Virus record (IMG/VR): IMGVR_UViG_3300046504_000185
Location: 1 to 59,160 of that record
Reading direction: 5' to 3' (one strand)
Source: a virus
Taxonomy: Duplodnaviria > Caudoviricetes
DNA length: 59,160 nucleotides
Made by a program: the position numbers and the translations under genes
Part shown: piece by piece, positions 1,122-8,263 of the stretch
Layout of the letters: each line of letters begins with the position of its first letter
Position numbering within the stretch: position 1 is the first letter of the stretch
The notes under the pieces: generated by a model
Told to the model about the DNA's origin: nothing
The model's input: only the letters and a program-made list of their open reading frames with translations
Databases searched by the model: none

Positions 1122-3140
1122 ATGAGTGAAACAACTGAATACACCTTAACTTCTTATTTAGGTCCTGAATTTCAACAAAAATTAATGTGGCAATTGCTGG
1201 TGGAATCAGAATATGCCGAAAAAGCATTGCCTAATATATCCGTAGAATATTTTGATGATCCGAATCTCAAGAGATTATTTCTTATTATGTTGGAATATCT
1301 CCGGACTTATGATAAAGTTCCAAATCTTCAAAATCAGAGCATACATCAAGCAATAAATCAGTTCAAAGCACCAAACAATATAATTGAAGAAGAATCTCTC
1401 TTTGCCGTAGTAAAACGTATTGAGTTATTTAATGAGAGAATTTTGAATAAATCTTTAATGCACGATGGCGAAGTTGTTCAGAAATCAACAAATGAATTTA
1501 TTAAACAACAAGAGTATCGTAAATTAGCAGAATTCATTATCGTCAAAATTAAAAGTGGCGAAATGAAAAATAAAAAGATTATTGGTGAGATAGAAGAAAA
1601 ATTTCAAAAAATTACTCTTATAGGCAGTGATGAAGATTGTGGCAGTGATGTTATTGAGGGTCTTGAAAAAGCATTGAGAAAAGAATTCAGAGAAACAATA
1701 CCAACAGGCGTTACTGTAATTGATGTATTAACTGATGGTGGATTGGGTAAAGGTGAAATGGGTTTGATCCTTACGCCTTCTGGTGTTGGAAAGACAACCT
1801 TGTTGACAAAAATTGCCAATACTGCCCGTGAAAACAATAAAAATGTACTTCAGATTATTTTCGAAGATACCAAAGAACAGATACAGAGAAAACACGTTAC
1901 CATTTGGACAAAAATAGCATTAAGCCAACTTAATGTCGATGATAATAATGTAATAGCACTTCAAAAAGCAAATGAACATATTCAGAAATTAGGTCCAGGC
2001 AGGCTTATAATAAAGAAGTTTAGTCAGGAAGATACCACAATGCGTGATGTCAAAAACTTTATATTAAGAGAACAGAAAAAATGGGGATTTAAATTTGATA
2101 TTGTTGTACTTGATTATCTTGATTGTCTTGAATCACACAAAAAAGTCACAGACAGGACTGAAGCAGAACTTGTAATTGTTAAATCATTTGAAGCACTTGC
2201 AAGTGATCTGAACATACCATGTTGGTCAGCAATTCAAAGTAATCGTTCAGGATTTGATGCTGAACTTGTTGAAGCACAACATACTGGTGGTAATATCAAA
2301 AGAGTTCAAAAATCACATTTCTTTATGAGTGTTGCCAAAACTGCAGATCAAAAAGAAGCAAGTCTTGCAAGTATTAAGATTATCAAGGCAAGGTTTGCAC
2401 AGGATGGTCAGATATTTAAAGATTGTATATTCAATAATGATACAATGCAAATCATCATTCAAGATGATAGATATGTTGGTGATAGATACAGGGGTTTGAA
2501 AAAACAAGGTGATGATGACATAAATAGACTTGAAAATAGAACAGATAAATTAAATTTATTTCATGTTGCTGCATCAAGTGCGTTAGCCAATAGTGATGAT
2601 CAGGAAAAAGTTTCATTGATGGATGATGCAGCAAAAAAATATCTTGAAAATTTTCCTACTGAAAAGCCGAAAACTGAAAATGAAATAATAACTGTAACTG
2701 GTGATATTGGAAAATTTCCGGATACTGTAAAAGAAATTTCAATGGAAAAAGATACTGAAACGCCAAAAATTGTAAAAGAAAAAAATGAAGACATACTTGA
2801 AATTGAAAACTTACCTATTGAAAAAACTGATGGTGTAATTGATGGTGCAACTGAGGGTGTAAATGATGGAGCAAAAGAACCAATTTTAGATTGGTCTGGA
2901 GAAACTTTTACTACTACAACGAATGAAATTGAAGTAAAAATCGATGTTATTAAGCCGATTGAAACGCCAAAAATTGAAGAAAAAACTGTAGAAAAACTAA
3001 TAATTGAAGAAAAAAATAAAAATATTTTGATAGCAGAAAAAGACTTTGATAATCCTGACGATGTGCCAAAAATACATAAAAATGTATTTGAAATGTTAAC
3101 GAAAAAGGCTAAGAGTCAGAAAGTTATAGATACCAGTTAA
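1122..3140 (+). CDS. DnaB-like (SF4, T4 gp41-like) replicative helicase with long acidic C-terminal tail
   Basis: IPTG...GGL..GE motif, Walker A TPSGVGKTT, Walker B VVLDYLD, SAIQSNR and KARF arginine finger; last ~200 aa are Glu/Lys-rich low complexity. Confidence 0.9.
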   Translation: MSETTEYTLTSYLGPEFQQKLMWQLLVESEYAEKALPNISVEYFDDPNLKRLFLIMLEYLRTYDKVPNLQNQSIHQAINQFKAPNNIIEEESLFAVVKRIELFNERILNKSLMHDGEVVQKSTNEFIKQQEYRKLAEFIIVKIKSGEMKNKKIIGEIEEKFQKITLIGSDEDCGSDVIEGLEKALRKEFRETIPTGVTVIDVLTDGGLGKGEMGLILTPSGVGKTTLLTKIANTARENNKNVLQIIFEDTKEQIQRKHVTIWTKIALSQLNVDDNNVIALQKANEHIQKLGPGRLIIKKFSQEDTTMRDVKNFILREQKKWGFKFDIVVLDYLDCLESHKKVTDRTEAELVIVKSFEALASDLNIPCWSAIQSNRSGFDAELVEAQHTGGNIKRVQKSHFFMSVAKTADQKEASLASIKIIKARFAQDGQIFKDCIFNNDTMQIIIQDDRYVGDRYRGLKKQGDDDINRLENRTDKLNLFHVAASSALANSDDQEKVSLMDDAAKKYLENFPTEKPKTENEIITVTGDIGKFPDTVKEISMEKDTETPKIVKEKNEDILEIENLPIEKTDGVIDGATEGVNDGAKEPILDWSGETFTTTTNEIEVKIDVIKPIETPKIEEKTVEKLIIEEKNKNILIAEKDFDNPDDVPKIHKNVFEMLTKKAKSQKVIDTS

Positions 3141-3235
3141 AATTTTTTATAAAATATTGTAACTTTTTGTAAACTACTTCGTATTTATATTCCCAGACGA
3201 TTGTAAAATTTTTTTTCTTTTTTTTCATAAAATAC

Positions 3236-3298
3236 TTGCACATTAAAAAAACTTGTATTTACTTTGCATCGTCCAAAAGGGACAAATGTTCTTTGTAA
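3236..3298 (+). promoter_or_regulatory. putative promoter plus boxB-like hairpin and boxA-like leader of the ncRNA operon
   Basis: TTG at 3236; TTACTTTG near-match to TAnnTTTG at 3259-3266; hairpin gtcc-aaaag-ggac at 3271-3283; GTTCTTTGTAA at 3288. Confidence 0.45.
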
Positions 3299-3309
3299 GA
3301 TTTTTTAAG

Positions 3310-3372
3310 GAGAAATGAAGTAGCCGTTATTATGCATGACTTTTCTTGGACATTCCAAACGGATAATTTCTC
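3310..3372 (+). ncRNA. structured RNA, possible degenerate scaffold copy
   Basis: gagaaat/atttctc and ccgtt/aacgg stems; shares gttatta with copy 1 but lacks ACAGTA. Confidence 0.35.
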
Positions 3373-3380
3373 ATATGATA

Positions 3381-3506
3381 TAAAAGGAAACGGTGTGTTA
3401 TTACAGTAACAATTACATCAATGATAGATGGTCCGCCTTCAAAGCAGAAAGTTCCGGGGTCAAAGCCGGATTGTTTAACAAAAATAACAAACAAATTATC
3501 CTTTTA
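3381..3506 (+). ncRNA. Y-RNA-like scaffold copy 1 carrying a degenerate tRNA-like domain (anticodon TCA)
   Basis: taaaagga/tcctttta outer stem; tgttatt/aataaca inner stem; ACAGTA at 3403-3408. Cloverleaf 3407-3477: aacaat/attgtt, catc/gatg, tccgc-cttcaaa-gcaga, ccgg-ggtcaaag-ccgg. Confidence 0.65.
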
Positions 3507-3545
3507 ATTTATAGTTTTCATGGGTTTTCACAAAACCCATTACAC

Positions 3546-3618
3546 TGCGGGGTGGTAGAAGAGGCATCTCGTCAGGCTCATAACCTGAAGATCGGGGGTT
3601 CGAATCCCTCTCCCGCTA
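3546..3618 (+). tRNA. tRNA-Met(CAT), initiator-like; CCA not encoded
   Basis: tgcgggg/tcccgct acceptor with 1-72 mismatch; tcagg-ctcataa-cctga anticodon arm; ggggg-ttcgaat-ccctc T arm; followed by ct rather than cca. Confidence 0.9.
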
Positions 3619-3623
3619 CTATG

Positions 3624-3696
3624 TAGAAGAACTGTTAGTGTTTACAGTAAAATAACGCACAGTGATTTATCTAATAAGACTGACAAATTTCTTCTA
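3624..3696 (+). ncRNA. Y-RNA-like scaffold copy 2 (minimal, no tRNA cargo)
   Basis: tagaagaa/ttcttcta and tgttagt/actgaca stems; gtgtttacagta at 3638-3649. Confidence 0.65.
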
Positions 3697-3727
3697 ATCT
3701 TTTTAACAAACGTTCTTTAAAATATAT

Positions 3728-3865
3728 GGGGAGATAGCAAAACAAAAAACAAAAAATACTATCTCAACTGCTCTCTTCAAAGAGAGAACTCGTAGTGTTT
3801 CCAGTAAAAGGTAAAGCAATTGAGTTGAAATCAATAGATTACAGGTTCGAGTCCTGTTCTCCCCA
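3728..3865 (+). tRNA. tRNA-like gene (anticodon TGA, no long variable arm) with a ~65-70 nt scaffold insertion (copy 3, permuted) in the D-loop
   Basis: ggggaga/tctcccc acceptor; tagc...ggtaaagc D region; attga-gttgaaa-tcaat; acagg-ttcgagt-cctgt. Insert ~3740-3808 folds as aatacta/tagtgtt and ctctct-tcaa-agagag and contains gtgtttccagta. Confidence 0.75.
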
Positions 3866-3874
3866 CAAGTAATT

Positions 3875-3908
3875 CCCGGTTGTCCCTGTGGCAACACAAA
3901 CTTCCGGG
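3875..3908 (+). ncRNA. small GC-rich stem-loop with GNRA hairpin
   Basis: cccgg/ccggg enclosing tgtg-gcaa-caca. Confidence 0.4.
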
Positions 3909-3915
3909 TAACGAT

Positions 3916-4080
3916 ACAATGGGAAAACGAAAAGTGTTTACAGTAATATCGGAGGTTCGAATCCTTCCTTCCCCACCAAAATAATAAAATAAGTTTGGGG
4001 AAGTAGACAAGTGGCAAAGTCAATAGTCGGTTAAACTATGAAAACAAAAACAACAAATACTTTTAAAATGTTCCCAATGT
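3916..4080 (+). ncRNA. scaffold copy 4 carrying a circularly permuted tRNA (anticodon GTT, Asn-like)
   Basis: tgggaa/ttccca and aaaagtgttt/aaatactttt stems, then ACAGTA. 3' half first: T arm 3951-3967, cttcccc-a-cca 3968-3978. Then an 18-nt linker and the 5' half: ggggaag 3997-4003, D arm gac/gtc, anticodon arm atagt-cggttaa-actat 4023-4039. Confidence 0.8.
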
Positions 4081-4085
4081 TTTAA

Positions 4086-4295
4086 AAGTGGTACAAGGGT
4101 GAATATAAATTATTACAAATGATATAAGTGTAACCCCAATCCCACTTAATCCTAACATTTGAAGCATGTTGCAACGTGCGTGGTTAAGAATGGTTTTTAT
4201 CGGCAGAAGTGCTGAGTTTTTTCAAAAATAAAGAAATAATTACTGTGTCTAAGTTAAGCCAGATCGAAAGATAGGACTTTTTTTCGGCAGTAGTT
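4086..4295 (+). ncRNA. additional structured non-coding elements, unclassified
   Basis: aagtgg/ccactt (4086-4147); gcatgt-tgca-acgtgc (4164-4179); aattactg/cagtagtt (4238-4295) enclosing atc-gaaa-gat. Confidence 0.35.
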
Positions 4296-4301
4296 TAAAA
4301 A

Positions 4302-4396
4302 GGAAGAACTGGGTGTGTTTACAGTAGATTGAAACATGGAATCCCGTCCATTGAGAGGCGGGACAAACTTACAGGCAATACAACCGAACTTCTTCT
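4302..4396 (+). ncRNA. Y-RNA-like scaffold copy 5 with GC-rich hairpin cargo
   Basis: ggaagaa/ttcttct and ggtgtgtt/aatacaacc stems; gtgtttacagta at 4315-4326; cargo tcccgtc-cattgaga-ggcggga. Confidence 0.65.
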
Positions 4397-4431
4397 CTAT
4401 ATTTGAGAGAAGTATTTTTCCTACAAGAAAT

Positions 4432-4477
4432 GGGCGGGGATATGGTGTGAAAACACCATGCTTTGCCCTTTTTTTTT
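4432..4477 (+). terminator. Rho-independent terminator closing the ncRNA operon
   Basis: gggcgggg/ctttgccc plus atggtgt-gaaa-acaccat, followed by T9. Confidence 0.75.
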
Positions 4478-4520
4478 GACGTTCTTTGTAATATTTTGGT
4501 ATTTTAATTTTTATAAATGC

Positions 4521-4551
4521 TTTGTTTGTAGAGAAAATATTTCTACATTTG
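4521..4551 (+). promoter_or_regulatory. Bacteroidota sigma70-type promoter (TTTG ... TACATTTG)
   Basis: TTTG 4521-4524, 19-nt spacer, TACATTTG 4544-4551, upstream of ATG 4581. Confidence 0.6.
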
Positions 4552-4580
4552 AGTTTTAATAAATCTAAAAAGCAATTTAT

Positions 4581-5486
4581 ATGGAAGAATTAATTAAGAT
4601 TACCGCAAGTCCTAAAACTGGAAATCCGGTTGTTAATGCAAGAGATTTATATAAATTTCTTGATGTCGGTATGCATTTTGCCGATTGGATAAAACCATTA
4701 ATTGATAAATGGGGATTTATCGAAAACCAAGATTTTGCCTTATTATTTTATGACAAAAATGGTGAAAAAATTCCAACGTCACAAAAACAGGACATGGAAG
4801 AATGGGGGTTTGCGAATAAGGTATATCGAATCGAGTATGCTTTGACCTTAGATACAGCCAAAGAAATTTCAATGGTGCAGAACAGTGTTAAAGGTAAAGA
4901 AGCCAGACGATATTTTATTGCCAAAGAAAAAGAATTGCAAGAATTAAAATTAAAAGCACCTGAACCGATTTTAGTTCTTTCAAATGGTACTCAAACGATT
5001 GCTGAAGTTGCAAAACTTCTTAATGAGAATAAAATTGATAAAGGTAAGATTAGTAGTCATAAAATAAATCAGGTGTTACGTGAAAACCGATATTTTAGAC
5101 CAAACAATCAACCGTATCAGAAATGGATTAATCAGGGTTTGTTTCAGATTGAACAATATAATCCTAAGTATTATTCGGCAAAACGAATAACAGTAACAAA
5201 TGCTAAAGGATTACCAATAATACAACAATTGTTCAATCAAAGTATTTCAGTAAGTCCAGTACCAATAAAATATGACAATCGAACATTTTTATTGGAAAAA
5301 ATTGAAAATGGTCGTCTGACGAGACTTGAAGAAACAATGCTTGCACTTATTAATCATATGTTTGCATGCTTAAATCATAAAAGCAAACCAATTGAAATTG
5401 AAAATTACAGGTCTCAGTTTAAAACATTTAAGGCAGAAATTGAGAAAGAAAAAATAAATAATCTGCCAAAAGCATTGAACATATAA
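4581..5486 (+). CDS. AntA/AntB-family antirepressor with KilA-C (ANT)-like domain
   Basis: VNARDLYKFL...FADWIK...FIENQDF...EYALTLDTAKEISM...GKEARRYFI; second domain TIAEVAKLL...LRENRY...PYQKWINQGLF. Confidence 0.85.
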   Translation: MEELIKITASPKTGNPVVNARDLYKFLDVGMHFADWIKPLIDKWGFIENQDFALLFYDKNGEKIPTSQKQDMEEWGFANKVYRIEYALTLDTAKEISMVQNSVKGKEARRYFIAKEKELQELKLKAPEPILVLSNGTQTIAEVAKLLNENKIDKGKISSHKINQVLRENRYFRPNNQPYQKWINQGLFQIEQYNPKYYSAKRITVTNAKGLPIIQQLFNQSISVSPVPIKYDNRTFLLEKIENGRLTRLEETMLALINHMFACLNHKSKPIEIENYRSQFKTFKAEIEKEKINNLPKALNI

Positions 5487-5525: not shown

Positions 5526-7154
5526 ATGGAAAAATTGGTATTAACACAGAAAATGCTTGGAACAATTAAGAATTCATTAATTGAAGGCTTAACCATTGCG
5601 AGTGGTGCTAAAAGCAGTGCAACTTACTACCACAAGAAAGATGACCAAATGAAGGCTTTACAAAGCCAGATCAAGGTGATGTACAAATTATCTAAGGAAC
5701 TTCCTTTGATTATAGCAAGTCAAAAGGGTGCTACAGGTAGATTTGTATCCGAAGTACTTTTGAATGAATTCAAAAATACCTTGAAGGGTGGTGCATGTAA
5801 TATTGTTAATCCAATTGATTGGTATGATAATGGATTGTCAGATAAGGCAGTTCTTACCGCATTGAATAATCTCGGTGAAAATGGTTTACCATATGTTCTT
5901 CGTTTATTCGTAGACTTGAAAAACGAAAAGGTTAACAACGAAAGGGCAAGGAAGATCATGCTTGGCTTCATTTGGGGTCAGTCAAACTTGGAATTCTATG
6001 CAATGAAGTACCGTAATAAAATTGCTGAAATTCTTAAGCACGTTTATGGTGTTAAGAAAACCTCAGTGTTACTTACTATTGCACGCAAGCAGGTAAATCT
6101 TCAGGGTGCTAACTTAGTTGGTACTCAGAAAGAAATGAATATTGTGAACGATTGTATCTTGAAATACTTCAACGGTGACACAGACAAGGCATTCAAATTA
6201 CTGCTTTTCTTATTCAAGCAGGATGCAGGTCTTAACCTTGATGAATTCAATCTTTTAAGAGAATACAAAAAGGCAAAACTTGATATCACAGGTATTAAGA
6301 GTGTTCCGGAAGAAGTATTGATTGGTTTGGTTTCTTCAATCAAGCACCCTCAGTACCACACAATGTGGTCAAGTAAGGTTCAAAGAGAAGCAACAAAGGC
6401 ACTTATTCGTAAGAATGTTGAAGTTACTTCTGTTAACCAACAGGTTCGTCAGACAAAATCAACTACAAAACTTGGCGTTGAAAAAACTGTTGAACTTGAA
6501 AAGGCAACTGACTTCCTTGCACTTTACAAGACAGGATATGAAAATACTTTCACTTCAGAATTAAAGAGTGCAATTGACAAACTTGCTGAAAAGAAAAAGA
6601 TCGTTGGTTTCTTCTACAAGAGCATTGGTATTATTGTCGATGACAGTAATTCAATGACTGGCGACAAGGCAGAATCAAAGAATACTCCAAGGGCAATTGC
6701 AGATTTTACTGCAAAGGTTTTGGGCAAGTCAGCAGATTGTGTGACTTTTGTGAAGACAAAGGATGAAGTAACTGATTTAGCAACAGCATTTGTTGAATTG
6801 CTTAAGTCAGAAAATACTGCAAATCCATATCAGGCAATTTTCATCTTAACCGATGGATATGAAAACGCCTACGATGGATTGACTAACGAAGTTATTTCAA
6901 TCTACAAGGCAGAAAGTCAGAGGGATATTCCAATATTCCAAATTTCACCTATCACAAGTGCTGAAATGGGTGCTAATGTAAGAAAATTGGGTGCTGATGT
7001 TGTCACAATGGCAATCAATAACCCAAGTGCATTACAGCCTCAGATTAACGCAAGGTTGCTTGAAATTGACACAAAACGTTGGTTGGAAAATCAGGTATTG
7101 GCTCTTGAAGCAGCACCTGTTAAGAGAACAAAAAAAATTAGTATTAATGTTTAA
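5526..7154 (+). CDS. Ro60/TROVE-like helical protein with C-terminal VWA (MIDAS) domain
   Basis: 542 aa, similar to Ro60 length. N-terminal ASGAKSSATYYHKK resembles the Ro60 GSEGGTYY motif; helical middle; VWA motifs IIVDDSNSM, TDL and IFILTDGYEN. The VWA call is strong; the TROVE call is by resemblance. Confidence 0.7.
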   Translation: MEKLVLTQKMLGTIKNSLIEGLTIASGAKSSATYYHKKDDQMKALQSQIKVMYKLSKELPLIIASQKGATGRFVSEVLLNEFKNTLKGGACNIVNPIDWYDNGLSDKAVLTALNNLGENGLPYVLRLFVDLKNEKVNNERARKIMLGFIWGQSNLEFYAMKYRNKIAEILKHVYGVKKTSVLLTIARKQVNLQGANLVGTQKEMNIVNDCILKYFNGDTDKAFKLLLFLFKQDAGLNLDEFNLLREYKKAKLDITGIKSVPEEVLIGLVSSIKHPQYHTMWSSKVQREATKALIRKNVEVTSVNQQVRQTKSTTKLGVEKTVELEKATDFLALYKTGYENTFTSELKSAIDKLAEKKKIVGFFYKSIGIIVDDSNSMTGDKAESKNTPRAIADFTAKVLGKSADCVTFVKTKDEVTDLATAFVELLKSENTANPYQAIFILTDGYENAYDGLTNEVISIYKAESQRDIPIFQISPITSAEMGANVRKLGADVVTMAINNPSALQPQINARLLEIDTKRWLENQVLALEAAPVKRTKKISINV

Positions 7155-7159
7155 AAAAT

Positions 7160-8263
7160 ATGACCATGAATACAAGAGAATTTACAGAATTACTTAAAGG
7201 TTGCCGTCCTGTTAAAGACAAGGATGGTAACATCATCGTACAATCTATCATGAACATGCAGGTTGTATGTTTAACAACTGATGTTGAAAATTCATTGGAT
7301 ACTCGTTTTGCGAATCCTTTGACAGCATTGCAGTCAAGTAACCAATCTTATGGTCAGATTAGTTTTAACAACAAATCTGATAAGGAAGTTATTCTTCCTA
7401 CTCAGATGGCTGTTTTAACAAAACAACAGGCACAGAACCACGGTATGATCAAGGCAGGTTATCTTGAAAAATACGCAAATACTACATATCACGATGCAGG
7501 TTGCGTACAAGGTGGACAAACCGGATATTTCCGTGGAACATCAGAATTCCGTATGATTCCTGTTTCAATGCGTGAAATGTTATTTGACAGCATTGGACAA
7601 TCTGCAGGTTATTCAAGGATTTATCCTGCTATTCAAAAATTAGGTCAGGAAACTGGCAGTGCTGCAGGTAATTACTTGAATGTATACTTCGAAAAGTACG
7701 ATAAGAAACTTGAACAGTTCATTGCACACTTTGAACGTCCAAAGAATCTGATTGGTATCATCGTCTTAATTGATGGTGAAATTGTTGCAATAGACAAATT
7801 CCCTTCATTCACATATGCTGAACAGGTATGGGATATGATGATCCGTGACTGCTATGGTTCACTTGCTATTATTTCTGAAGTAAAAAACAGGAAGTCAAGT
7901 AATGAATTCACTGAAACATATACTGAAATGAAGAAAAGTCATCAGGAAAATGTTGTTGATTTGCTTGAAAAAGCATTGAAGAAAACCAAGCAGAACATGA
8001 CTGCAAGTGTAAATGAAAAACTTCAGGAGTTACTTGAACTTACTTTTGATGCTACACTTGATACAGAAGGACAACCAACTGCAGCAAGAGCACCAAAGTC
8101 ATATGTTCTTAAGACTGAAGGTTACATTGGTCAGGTGATCACTGAAAATGAATTTAACCACCTTGTAAGTGTTGTTAAGAGAGACAGGTTCGACCCTAAC
8201 GCACTCCGAGAAGTTAACGAACTTCGTAAGAAGGCTCGTAAGCAGGATAGATTCAGTTTATAA
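7160..8263 (+). CDS. ARPP-family (DUF6569-like) protein
   Basis: QNH...CVQGGQ and IGIIVLIDGEIVAIDKFPS resemble the DUF6569/ARPP QNR...CVE.GR and G-hydrophobic-DG...D.F.S motifs; starts 5 nt after the Ro-like gene. Confidence 0.6.
   Translation: MTMNTREFTELLKGCRPVKDKDGNIIVQSIMNMQVVCLTTDVENSLDTRFANPLTALQSSNQSYGQISFNNKSDKEVILPTQMAVLTKQQAQNHGMIKAGYLEKYANTTYHDAGCVQGGQTGYFRGTSEFRMIPVSMREMLFDSIGQSAGYSRIYPAIQKLGQETGSAAGNYLNVYFEKYDKKLEQFIAHFERPKNLIGIIVLIDGEIVAIDKFPSFTYAEQVWDMMIRDCYGSLAIISEVKNRKSSNEFTETYTEMKKSHQENVVDLLEKALKKTKQNMTASVNEKLQELLELTFDATLDTEGQPTAARAPKSYVLKTEGYIGQVITENEFNHLVSVVKRDRFDPNALREVNELRKKARKQDRFSL

Follow-up and report, generated by a model that had tools for sequence, protein, structure and literature searches.

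A tRNA-shaped RNA with a rod in its D-loop, encoded upstream of a Ro60-like gene in a jumbo-phage fragment

The IMG/VR virus record IMGVR_UViG_3300046504_000185, analysed here over its full 59,160 nucleotides (nt; the window), is a fragment of a jumbo phage with an estimated completeness of 18%. Between a DnaB-like helicase gene (1122–3140) and the genes further downstream, a non-coding island is located (3150–4560), in which a canonical tRNA-Met gene heads four RNAs, here named types A to D, that share a rod-like helical element. A gene for a 542-amino-acid (aa) protein, of which the structural model has the Ro60 fold, lies downstream on the same strand. The second of the four, the type B RNA (3728–3865), is the main subject of this work; it is shaped like a tRNA, has free acceptor ends and carries the rod, capped, inside its D-loop.

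Architecture of the type B RNA and its siblings

Comparative folding shows that the rod is made up of a stem P1, an internal loop and a second stem P2, which ends in GUGUUU/AAAUAC via an invariant G·U pair and is followed by an unpaired NCAGUAA. The sequence GTGTTTMCAGTAR is present four times on the plus strand (at 3638, 3795, 3934 and 4315), never on the minus strand or in a reversed control, and nowhere in the record outside the island. When up to two mismatches are allowed, seven matches are found against 1.91 expected, a number reached by none of 100 shuffles. Copies 1, 3 and 4 have the order P1 5' strand, GUGUUUNCAGUA, insert, ..AAUAC.. and P1 3' strand; the ends form P1 and a variable insert emanates from P2. 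In copy 2, which is type B, the order is AAAUACUA, P1 3' strand, UCAA cap, P1 5' strand and UAGUGUUUCCAGUAA, with P2 opening into the tRNA. Comparison with copies 1, 3 and 4 thus bears out the first-pass annotation, made from the letters of the DNA, which had described a tRNA with the same scaffold inserted, strand-swapped and capped by UCAA, into its D-loop, and the strand order agrees with its statement that the topology is the inverse of that of copy 4.

The tRNA part of type B contains a 7-base-pair (bp) acceptor stem (GGGGAGA/UCUCCCC), a 5-bp anticodon stem with a seven-nucleotide loop containing U33, and a 5-bp T stem with a canonical T loop of the GTTCRANTC type, features which are also those of a tRNA-Ser; all three stems are perfect, as had been noted. 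The anticodon is UGA and position 32 is a G, again as first described, and the long variable arm that marks bacterial tRNA-Ser is, also as described, not found in type B, the variable loop being only 5 nt long (AGAUU). No CCA is encoded; the bases after the discriminator are caa.

In place of a normal D arm, with a stem of 3–4 bp and a loop of 7–11 nt, type B has a D stem reduced to two pairs, G10 and C11 with G24 and C25 (3816–3817), and about 77 nt between them. About 62–65 of the nucleotides between G10-C11 and G24-C25 are extra, close to the 65–70 estimated earlier. Since a GG resembling G18G19 and the two D-stem pairs remain, the L-shape can still form. Within the insert, P1 is the hairpin CUCUCU-UCAA-AGAGAG (3771–3786), and CCAGUAA is the version, in the type B RNA of the window, of the NCAGUAA core that is conserved across all rod RNAs.

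ARAGORN does not call type B as it stands, and the Rfam tRNA model matches it in part (3803–3857, model positions 9–63, 32.6 bits). When the insert is deleted in a script, a check that had been proposed, ARAGORN reports a tRNA-Ser(tga) in 92 of 180 deletion variants. The minimum free energy fold of the single sequence recovers the acceptor stem, the T arm and P1, not P2. A tmRNA-like tag frame in the A/C-rich linker was considered and dropped, as the linker lengths of homologues differ by non-multiples of three.

The three siblings are open rods (Table 1). In type C, the rod surrounds a circularly permuted tRNA, in the order T arm, acceptor 3' strand with CCA, 18-nt loop, acceptor 5' strand, D arm and anticodon arm. 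Pairing in its alignment A2 (38 sequences) reaches 98.6%, and double changes number 189, compared with 54.8 in shuffles. When type C is un-permuted in a script, ARAGORN calls tRNA-Asn(gtt) in 61 of 64 joins, and the Rfam tmRNA_permuted model matches it in part (3951–4005), with 24.2 bits, under the threshold of 47. The permuted acceptor is closed in three ways in A2: by NCCA plus about 18 nt, by an 8-nt loop GCCAAAAU, or by a plain loop of 3–4 nt without CCA. The last form is present in six of the 38 (L091, L112, L114, L085, L131 and L134), so some lineages can do without a free CCA end. No tag frame is possible in type C either, because linker lengths differ by non-multiples of three.

In most relatives, type D sits 211–280 nt upstream of the Ro60-like gene. 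The 3' strand of its P1 (UUCUUC) shares positions with a terminator-like hairpin, CUUCUCU-AUAUUU-GAGAGAAG with Us after it (4392–4412), and type D looks like a leader able to sense the protein, that is, like an autoregulatory element.

Table 1. Positions in the window of the rod RNAs, of the parts of the type B RNA and of the associated tRNA and protein genes.
Feature	Position	Strand	Remarks
tRNA-Met (CAU), canonical	3546–3619	+	ARAGORN, Rfam; heads the rod RNAs
Type A RNA: open rod, P1 AGAAGAA/UUCUUCU, GUGUUUACAGUAA, short non-tRNA insert	3625–3695	+	Directly after tRNA-Met
Type B RNA: tRNA-shaped, free acceptor ends, capped rod in D-loop	3728–3865	+	138 nt; alignment of 31 homologues
Type B, acceptor 5' strand GGGGAGA (3728–3734), U8 A9, G10 C11	3728–3738	+	
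Type B, A/C-rich single-stranded linker AAAACAAAAAACAAA	3739–3753	+	Homologue lengths differ by non-multiples of three
Type B, rod helix P2, first strand AAAUACUA, paired with 3793–3800	3754–3761	+	RNAalifold
Type B, internal loop (strands UCUCAACUG and AACUCG) enclosing capped hairpin P1	3762–3792	+	
Type B, rod helix P2, second strand UAGUGUUU	3793–3800	+	RNAalifold, pair counts
Type B, unpaired CCAGUAA, then AAGGUAAAGC with G18G19-like GG and D-stem 3' strand	3801–3817	+	
Type B, anticodon arm AUUGA-GUUGAAA-UCAAU, anticodon UGA, G32, U33	3819–3835	+	5-bp stem
Type B, T arm ACAGG-UUCGAGU-CCUGU, acceptor 3' strand UCUCCCC, discriminator A	3841–3865	+	
Type C RNA: open rod around circularly permuted tRNA	3921–4075	+	Alignment A2
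Type D RNA: open rod with pseudoknot-like insert	4302–4395	+	
Ro60/Rsr-like protein gene, 542 aa	5526–7154	+	Modelled N-terminal helical-repeat ring, then vWA domain with DxSxS MIDAS motif

Conservation of the RNAs and linkage to the Ro60-like gene

Two pattern scans of IMG/VR led to about 50 related contigs, several of them complete genomes of 300–357 kb. The 39 type B pattern matches comprise 33 distinct sequences; after one that was mis-extracted (L032) and one in coding DNA (L128) had been left out, 31 remained in alignment A1. Six type B pattern matches without a T-loop match were not extracted; three are coding DNA (L093, L123 and L129) and three have variant T loops (L059, L101 and L130). 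In A1, 99.4% of the cells are paired in the cloverleaf plus rod, against 45–53% when the structure is slid by 1–3 columns. Double changes are present in 87 cells, against 20.7 ± 4.3 in shuffles, and none of 500 shuffles reaches 87. The acceptor and anticodon stems are both 100% paired, with both-sided changes in five of the seven acceptor pairs, and in the T stem four of the five pairs change on both sides. The pairs G10–C25 and C11–G24 are invariant in all 31 sequences. P1 is 100% paired, with one pair changed from U-A to C-G in 11 of the 31, and P2 is 97.6% paired, with one both-sided pair and one invariant U·G wobble. The insert folds like the other copies, as the first-pass annotation had anticipated, and the strand swap of the rod is real and not a chance arrangement.

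Conservation is distributed unevenly over the molecule. Columns C75 A76 G77 T78 A79 and G83 of A1 are invariant and the column entropy in the NCAGUAA region is 0.19 bit; within the clade, the P2 core and NCAGUAA are near-invariant (0.01–0.25 bit per column) and the tRNA stems covary freely, which fits sequence-specific recognition of the rod. The anticodon loop is the most variable part, changing at 2.1–2.9 times the rate of other sites between close pairs (15 and 10 pairs). Among the 31 type B sequences there are 13 distinct loops, of which GUUGAAA is present in 18, giving the anticodon UGA in those 18, with CGA, UAA and GUA as further anticodons; type C has 21 distinct loops among 38 sequences. 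U33 is absent from eight of 30 loops in type B and from 15 of 38 in type C.

Loci where the downstream protein is only 26–60% identical also carry rods, fused to tRNA-like modules in further ways. In relatives with a 26–47% identical protein, P2 has changed compensatingly (for instance to GCGAGUU/AAUUCGC or GUCAUU/AAUGAC), with ..WUU-NCAG.. kept. The conserved core of the rods is RUNWUU-NCAG. D-loop-type copies are found in L243 (2154–2293), L252 and L256, the topology recurring down to 40% protein identity; deletion of their inserts gives a tRNA-like fold in ARAGORN in 101, 107 and 123 of 243 variants, respectively, and the anticodon loops of the L256 and L252 copies have 6 and 8 nt. In an acceptor-end fusion, ordinary tRNA ends run into the rod strands (L242:3315–3435, L252:3208–3330 and L259:2825–2945); here the acceptor 5' strand of the tRNA is the rod CAGUAAA and the 3' end passes via (A)CCA into the other rod strand. 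A permuted form is present at L259:2660–2790, and in L256:2763–2910, as judged by eye, the capped rod takes the place of the variable arm of an unpermuted tRNA.

The uninterrupted relative that the first-pass annotation had suggested looking for was also found. It is a 72-nt, rod-free homologue of type B at L242:3206–3277, called Tyr-gta by ARAGORN. Its sister contigs L243 and L244 carry the rod, with the boundaries at a short direct repeat, TAAACAC, and between L242 and these sisters the anticodon stem has since changed on both strands.

In a clustering of the open reading frames (ORFs) around 52 loci, the 542-aa protein turns up just downstream at 40 loci and the helicase upstream at 44. Among 51 loci anchored on the rod motif, the gene follows the last rod on the same strand, at 211–2036 nt, in 40; ten others end less than 1.5 kb past the last rod, and one has no gene within 1842 nt. 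The reverse search was anchored on the protein and covered 67 loci in which protein identity was 59% or higher and the upstream DNA 2.5 kb or longer; in these, rods were sought within 3.5 kb. A structural rod detector proved too permissive (304 upstream matches against 63–168 in control regions), and a stricter motif was used in its place. With this motif, rods are present upstream and on the same strand in all 67 loci (229 matches), the control regions containing two matches upstream on the opposite strand, none downstream on the same strand and one downstream on the opposite strand. The linkage between rods and gene is strict.

In the complete genome of the relative G001 (321,624 nt), the only three rods are located at 43–44 kb, beside the Ro60-like gene. 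At 122–160 kb, the same genome contains 46 ordinary tRNAs, including tRNA-Ser(tga) and tRNA-Asn(gtt), and a tmRNA. One of its tRNAs has a CTA anticodon and would read amber codons, two have odd anticodon loops, and the tmRNA tag is VEDIMSIQTSVTRGESVFARNTELAIAA. The rod pattern, run over one genome each of 185,579 prokaryote species, matched 33 stretches, of which 32 are chance matches in coding DNA; the only true rod in a cellular genome lies on L158, a 2,341-nt contig in a Bacteroidota metagenome-assembled genome. With one true rod in that scan, the element looks phage-specific.

The 542-aa protein has no sequence match in Pfam, PHROG or the PDB, and searching the PDB with its sequence and with profile A3 (made from 22 homologues minus two shortened ones, L132 and L013) gave nothing relevant. 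A tblastn search against phage records gave a single match (LR756500.1, 25.5% identity), while an exhaustive HMMER search collected 359 relatives at E ≤ 0.001, none of them annotated where named. Alignment A4 contains 123 relatives, the 150 representatives having been cleared of fragments and of proteins with long extensions; its profile gives 370 matches, and all of the 120 matches listed lack a Pfam domain and any name except "hypothetical". Feature neighbours in the ESM-Atlas include TROVE/vWA_Ro60 clusters at 0.93–0.94, a similarity that serves as a lead only.

A first model at the AlphaFold2 stage, from 20 close homologues, was poor (predicted local distance difference test, pLDDT, 65.8), but its top ten Foldseek matches were already all Ro60. 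With A4, the AlphaFold2 model reaches a pLDDT of 93.4 and a predicted template modelling score of 0.91. The top 12 Foldseek matches of this final model are all Ro60 structures, from Xenopus, human, Deinococcus (Rsr) and Thermus phage phiLo, with E-values from 1.9e-7 to 1.2e-3, and the next match has an E-value of 1.4e-2. VIA-align superposes the model on PDB entry 1yvr with a Z-score of 18.5 and a root mean square deviation of 4.4 Å over 403 residues; this is followed by the phiLo phage Ro60 (Z-scores of 15.5 and 15.3) and Rsr (12.7), and then by vWA domains only. In the MIDAS (metal-ion-dependent adhesion site) motif DxSxS, D372 is invariant across the 123 relatives, and S374 and S376 are at least 90% conserved. 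Because the model matches the Ro60 fold and the MIDAS signature is kept, the protein is, as modelled, a Ro60/Rsr homologue beyond the reach of sequence profiles, and it is the presumed partner of the rod RNAs. Two other candidate partners were rejected: RtcB, which is encoded in one of five complete relatives and absent from the other four, and a Pfam TROVE protein, which is in none of the five.

Expression was judged from contigs of four metatranscriptome runs. A 252-nt contig is exact to 3885–4136, and contigs of relatives cover 3711–3804 and 3807–3858, which weakly supports expression of type B. There is no cover over 3630–3677 or the flanks in the contigs of these four runs. Two joints that were listed, 3409–3477 and 4232–4300, derive from diverged relatives.

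The type B RNA as a Y-RNA-like component

Published Y RNA loci follow a pattern, of which PMC4201824 gives the main elements: the genes for Y RNAs are found no more than 4 kb from rsr and on its strand, with several per locus, the tRNA-like domain of YrlA has the order T, closed acceptor, D, the YrlA of M. smegmatis is cleaved by RNase P and acquires a CCA, and Y RNAs can be co-transcribed with a tRNA. In a Thermus phage, Ro60 binds a pair of Y-like RNAs that are encoded upstream of its own gene (PMC12135203), a few jumbo phages are known with TROVE proteins (PMC7824862), and the Salmonella rsr-yrlBA-rtcBA operon is induced by broken tRNAs (PMC7790460). Our island matches the pattern, type B ending at 3865 and the Ro60-like gene starting at 5526 on the same strand, within about 4 kb, and for this reason we take the rod to be a Ro60-binding module and regard the four RNAs as paralogues of a Y-RNA-like kind. 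The locus is best explained as a new topology of the Ro60/Y-RNA system in a jumbo-phage clade, with a Ro60 homologue that is missed by current profiles. We give a probability of roughly 0.6 to the reading that type B is one of four paralogous Y-RNA-like RNAs of a jumbo phage, encoded upstream of the phage's own divergent Ro60/Rsr gene, and that it mimics a tRNA, the tRNA ends being free and the stem presumed to bind Ro60 lying in the D-loop, a topology without precedent.

We infer that the rod binds the Ro60-like ring and that the insert is kept in the mature RNA. Type B would be transcribed together with tRNA-Met in a transcript containing several RNAs and would be processed like a tRNA, by RNase P and 3' trimming, into a mature RNA of about 138 nt that retains the rod. 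The rod would then tether the phage Ro60 ring to whatever recognises the tRNA body, for which tRNA-processing, charging or modification enzymes, the translation apparatus and host nucleases that cut anticodon loops are candidates. A tRNA-like module of the Y RNA type is present in type B (T arm, D-loop GG and acceptor-like stem). Structure speaks for membership of the partner protein in the TROVE/Ro60 family (the Z-score of 18.5, with a match to Ro60/Rsr along the full length, and the top 12 Foldseek matches); sequence profiles do not.

Several observations weigh against this reading. In type B, UCAA caps the rod and the 5' and 3' ends belong to the acceptor stem, so that the Ro60-site stem is not formed by the RNA's own ends as in every described Y RNA, and as it is in types A, C and D. 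The motif GNCGAAN0-1G is present in none of the 31 type B and 38 type C sequences, neither it nor the animal GGUCCGA is found in 3150–4560, and no Rfam family of the Y RNA type matches at E ≤ 10. The protein has no sequence link to TROVE: Pfam assigns no family to the protein of the window, PF05731 is present in none of the five complete relatives, and TROVE in none of ten sampled distant relatives. Since the phages with these loci are all related, the linkage could be a product of conserved gene order alone, and the RNA-library contigs may contain carried-over DNA. A conserved alternative helix (3731–3737/3758–3764) pairs tRNA positions 4–10 (GAGAUAG) with CUAUCUC inside the rod. It is 94% paired over the 31 sequences, with four double-change cells against 0.8 (four of 500 shuffles reach four), and it tracks the acceptor sequence, being GAAGUAG/CUACUUC in L112 and GAGUUAG/CUAACUC in L109. 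This helix and the acceptor stem with full P2 are mutually exclusive; the competition hints at a switch or a folding intermediate, and the simple picture of two modules may be incomplete.

The closest known system is YrlA with Rsr/Ro60, from S. Typhimurium, M. smegmatis and mycobacteriophages (PMC4201824 and bioRxiv 10.1101/312249). As there, a gene for a Ro60-fold protein is closely preceded on its strand by several paralogous RNAs, which are built in a modular way, from a stem module and a tRNA-like module with T-loop and GG. Type C shares the order T, closed acceptor, D, and some type C copies have NCCA in the acceptor loop, as needed for an RNase P cut and CCA end of the M. smegmatis type. 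However, YrlA has a closed acceptor, no anticodon loop and a stem module that continues the anticodon stem, whereas type B has free tRNA ends, a full anticodon arm and a capped stem module in the D-loop. The phage rods also lack GNCGAAN0-1G, and their partner protein is unrecognised by Pfam TROVE. Thermus phage phiLo likewise has a phage Ro60, with the Y-like RNAs Yrl1 and Yrl2 encoded upstream (PMC12135203; PDB entries 9KOP and 9L5Y); the model of our protein aligns with it at Z-scores of 15.3–15.5, at about 12% sequence identity. The phiLo RNAs, in contrast, are chosen by a CGAA motif and a stem-bulge-stem shape, and the term 'tRNA-like' is nowhere in the main text of PMC12135203. In Deinococcus radiodurans, Yrn1 combines a T arm with an anticodon-like arm whose loop has 6 nt, a loop size also present in related phage clades, and Yrn2 is co-transcribed with a tRNA and Yrn1 (PMC4201824), the phage island likewise beginning with tRNA genes; the Deinococcus RNA builds its Ro-binding stem from its ends, and that text describes no insertion in a D-loop. 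Literature searches on permuted phage tRNAs, on D-loop insertions in huge phages and on jumbo-phage Y RNA or TROVE brought up no description of the type B RNA, with the proviso that the supplementary tables of PMC4201824 may list more phage Y RNAs.

It is also conceivable, if rather improbable, that type B is a working, chargeable tRNA used in decoding, with a rod unrelated to Ro60 that would, for example, stand in for the long arm (seryl-, leucyl- or tyrosyl-tRNA synthetase) or shield the molecule from host nucleases. The copy in the window keeps the acceptor stem, the T arm, the GG and the seven-nucleotide loop with U33, and most type B anticodons are those of amino acids with long-arm tRNAs in bacteria; the D arm of type C looks similar to that of long-arm tRNAs. 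The anticodon loop changes rapidly between close pairs, and variant anticodon loops have been proposed to let phage tRNAs escape nucleases. A decoding role is hard to reconcile with the loops that lack U33 in both types, with the 6-nt and 8-nt loops of L256 and L252 in related clades, or with the six type C copies in which the acceptor is closed without CCA. Besides, G001 already covers these anticodons with canonical tRNAs (tRNA-Ser(tga) and tRNA-Asn(gtt)), the same rod exists without any tRNA in types A and D, and the rod is strictly linked to the Ro60-like gene.

An autonomous rod (for example, a stem processed by RNase III or some other nuclease, a ribozyme of small size, or a switch sensing a ligand or protein), with the Ro60-like gene nearby through inherited order, seems to us improbable in a higher degree. 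A duplex of about 20 bp with an internal loop does flank the inserts as rRNA processing stems do, the overlap of P1 with a terminator-like hairpin in type D is switch-like, and the conserved alternative helix of type B and the common descent of all loci are compatible with such an element. Yet no known ribozyme or riboswitch family matches, and the motif persists beside Ro60-like genes that are only 26–47% identical. A processing stem needs neither an invariant sequence nor an invariant G·U, and cleavage in the type B rod would split the tRNA body.

We regard as unlikely, and decidedly so, an intervening sequence that is excised and the halves joined to an ordinary tRNA-Ser(UGA) of 72–76 nt, the permuted copy maturing via a circular intermediate as in algae. 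The junction logic is the same between copies, the 5' part of the tRNA leading into the A/C-rich strand and its 3' part following on from NCAGUAA; the ARAGORN calls after deletion, the insert-free relative in L242 and the RtcB of one complete relative would agree with excision. Removal, however, leaves a D stem of G-C, C-G, A·A and A·A, and the rod sequence is more conserved than the tRNA stems and is shared with RNAs without a tRNA. No Rfam ribozyme or intron matches at E ≤ 10, no bulge-helix-bulge is seen by eye, four of the five complete relatives lack RtcB, and a phage relative already has a canonical tRNA-Ser(tga). The RNA-library contigs are unbroken over the 5' junction of type B (3711–3804) and all of type C (3885–4136) and contain no joint that skips either insert, a weak point, as contigs drop rare forms.

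Permuted tRNA genes of the red alga Cyanidioschyzon and two-piece tmRNA mature into ordinary tRNA or tmRNA; type C shares with them the order 3' half, CCA, spacer, 5' half, but its break is at the tip of a conserved rod and in six of the 38 copies CCA is missing. Both group I introns of bacterial and phage tRNAs and archaeal bulge-helix-bulge introns resemble type B in having an extra segment at a non-canonical place; they differ in that the segment here matches no intron family, is shared with non-tRNA RNAs and leaves a crippled D arm when removed. A decayed tRNA gene broken by a repeat, or a chance resemblance, could account for the missing ARAGORN call and the abnormal D arm, but is refuted by compensating changes in every stem of 31 distinct homologues and by recurrence of the topology in clades down to 40% protein identity, which leaves it a negligible probability.

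A more speculative extension of the reading of type B as a Y-RNA-like component, which we consider doubtful, may be put forward. The phage Y RNA family would have explored every fusion of rod and tRNA (D-loop, variable arm, acceptor ends, permuted and unpermuted), the D-loop form would be a processed and possibly chargeable tRNA that couples the viral Ro60 ring to machinery reading tRNAs, and the Ro60 ribonucleoprotein would act as a decoy, sensor or repair platform in an arms race over tRNA between jumbo phage and host. The fast-changing and often non-canonical anticodon loops suggest that the tRNA side baits anticodon nucleases or other tRNA-targeting defences.

Ro60 with its Y RNAs is a conserved and poorly understood RNA surveillance system, and even in bacteria the partner of the tRNA-like half of Y RNAs is unsettled. 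The locus offers a natural series of rod–tRNA fusions in differing topologies, with complete anticodon arms, and a Ro60 clade missed by sequence profiles, which extends the known range of Ro60 systems in giant phages. RUNWUU-NCAG is a defined RNA motif for binding tests, and whether a Y RNA can act as a tRNA becomes testable. Since tRNA finders and Pfam miss both partners, such loci are annotated as empty intergenic DNA followed by a hypothetical protein.

Other features of the island and its surroundings

In the entire window, ARAGORN finds one gene, the tRNA-Met at 3546–3619, which is also the only part of the island matched by blastn among the INPHARED phages (75 records, none covering at least 80%). 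An Rfam scan of the window at the gathering thresholds and an E-value scan of 3150–4560 gave tRNA matches and the sub-threshold tmRNA_permuted only, with no ribozyme, intron, riboswitch, Y RNA, GOLLD or ROOL. Promoter-like sites are no more common than by chance (12 against 10.7).

Upstream of tRNA-Met, a tRNA-like gene missed by ARAGORN is located at 3407–3477 (plus strand), which the Rfam tRNA model matches over its full length with 37.3 bits. Its anticodon loop is CUUCAAA and its anticodon, UCA, would read UGA; the long ORFs of the window are open in the standard code.

The antirepressor gene of the AntA/KilAC type (4581–5486, plus strand) is inserted between the RNA island and the Ro60-like gene, and because of this insertion the gap between island and gene is larger in the window (1221 nt). 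A homologue of the antirepressor is found near the island in 11 of the 52 loci. Next after the Ro60-like gene is the gene of an ARPP-1 domain protein (7160–8263, plus strand; Pfam PF20208, E-value 1.7e-15), kept in 23 of the 52 loci. For the ARPP-1 family, an action on ribose or ADP-ribose moieties in conflict systems has been proposed (PMC9503650); with no evident link to the RNA, this protein was rejected as its partner.

Between types C and D, at 4090–4290 (plus strand), another conserved non-coding element is present, without an Rfam match. It is made up of a long hairpin, AAGUGG...CCACUU, followed by CCUAACAUUUGAA and a terminator-like hairpin (4200–4215), and it has the best cover by RNA-library contigs within the island (4151–4236/4260, in three runs). 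After type D and just before the downstream genes, a further long hairpin with a run of nine Us is located at 4432–4477.

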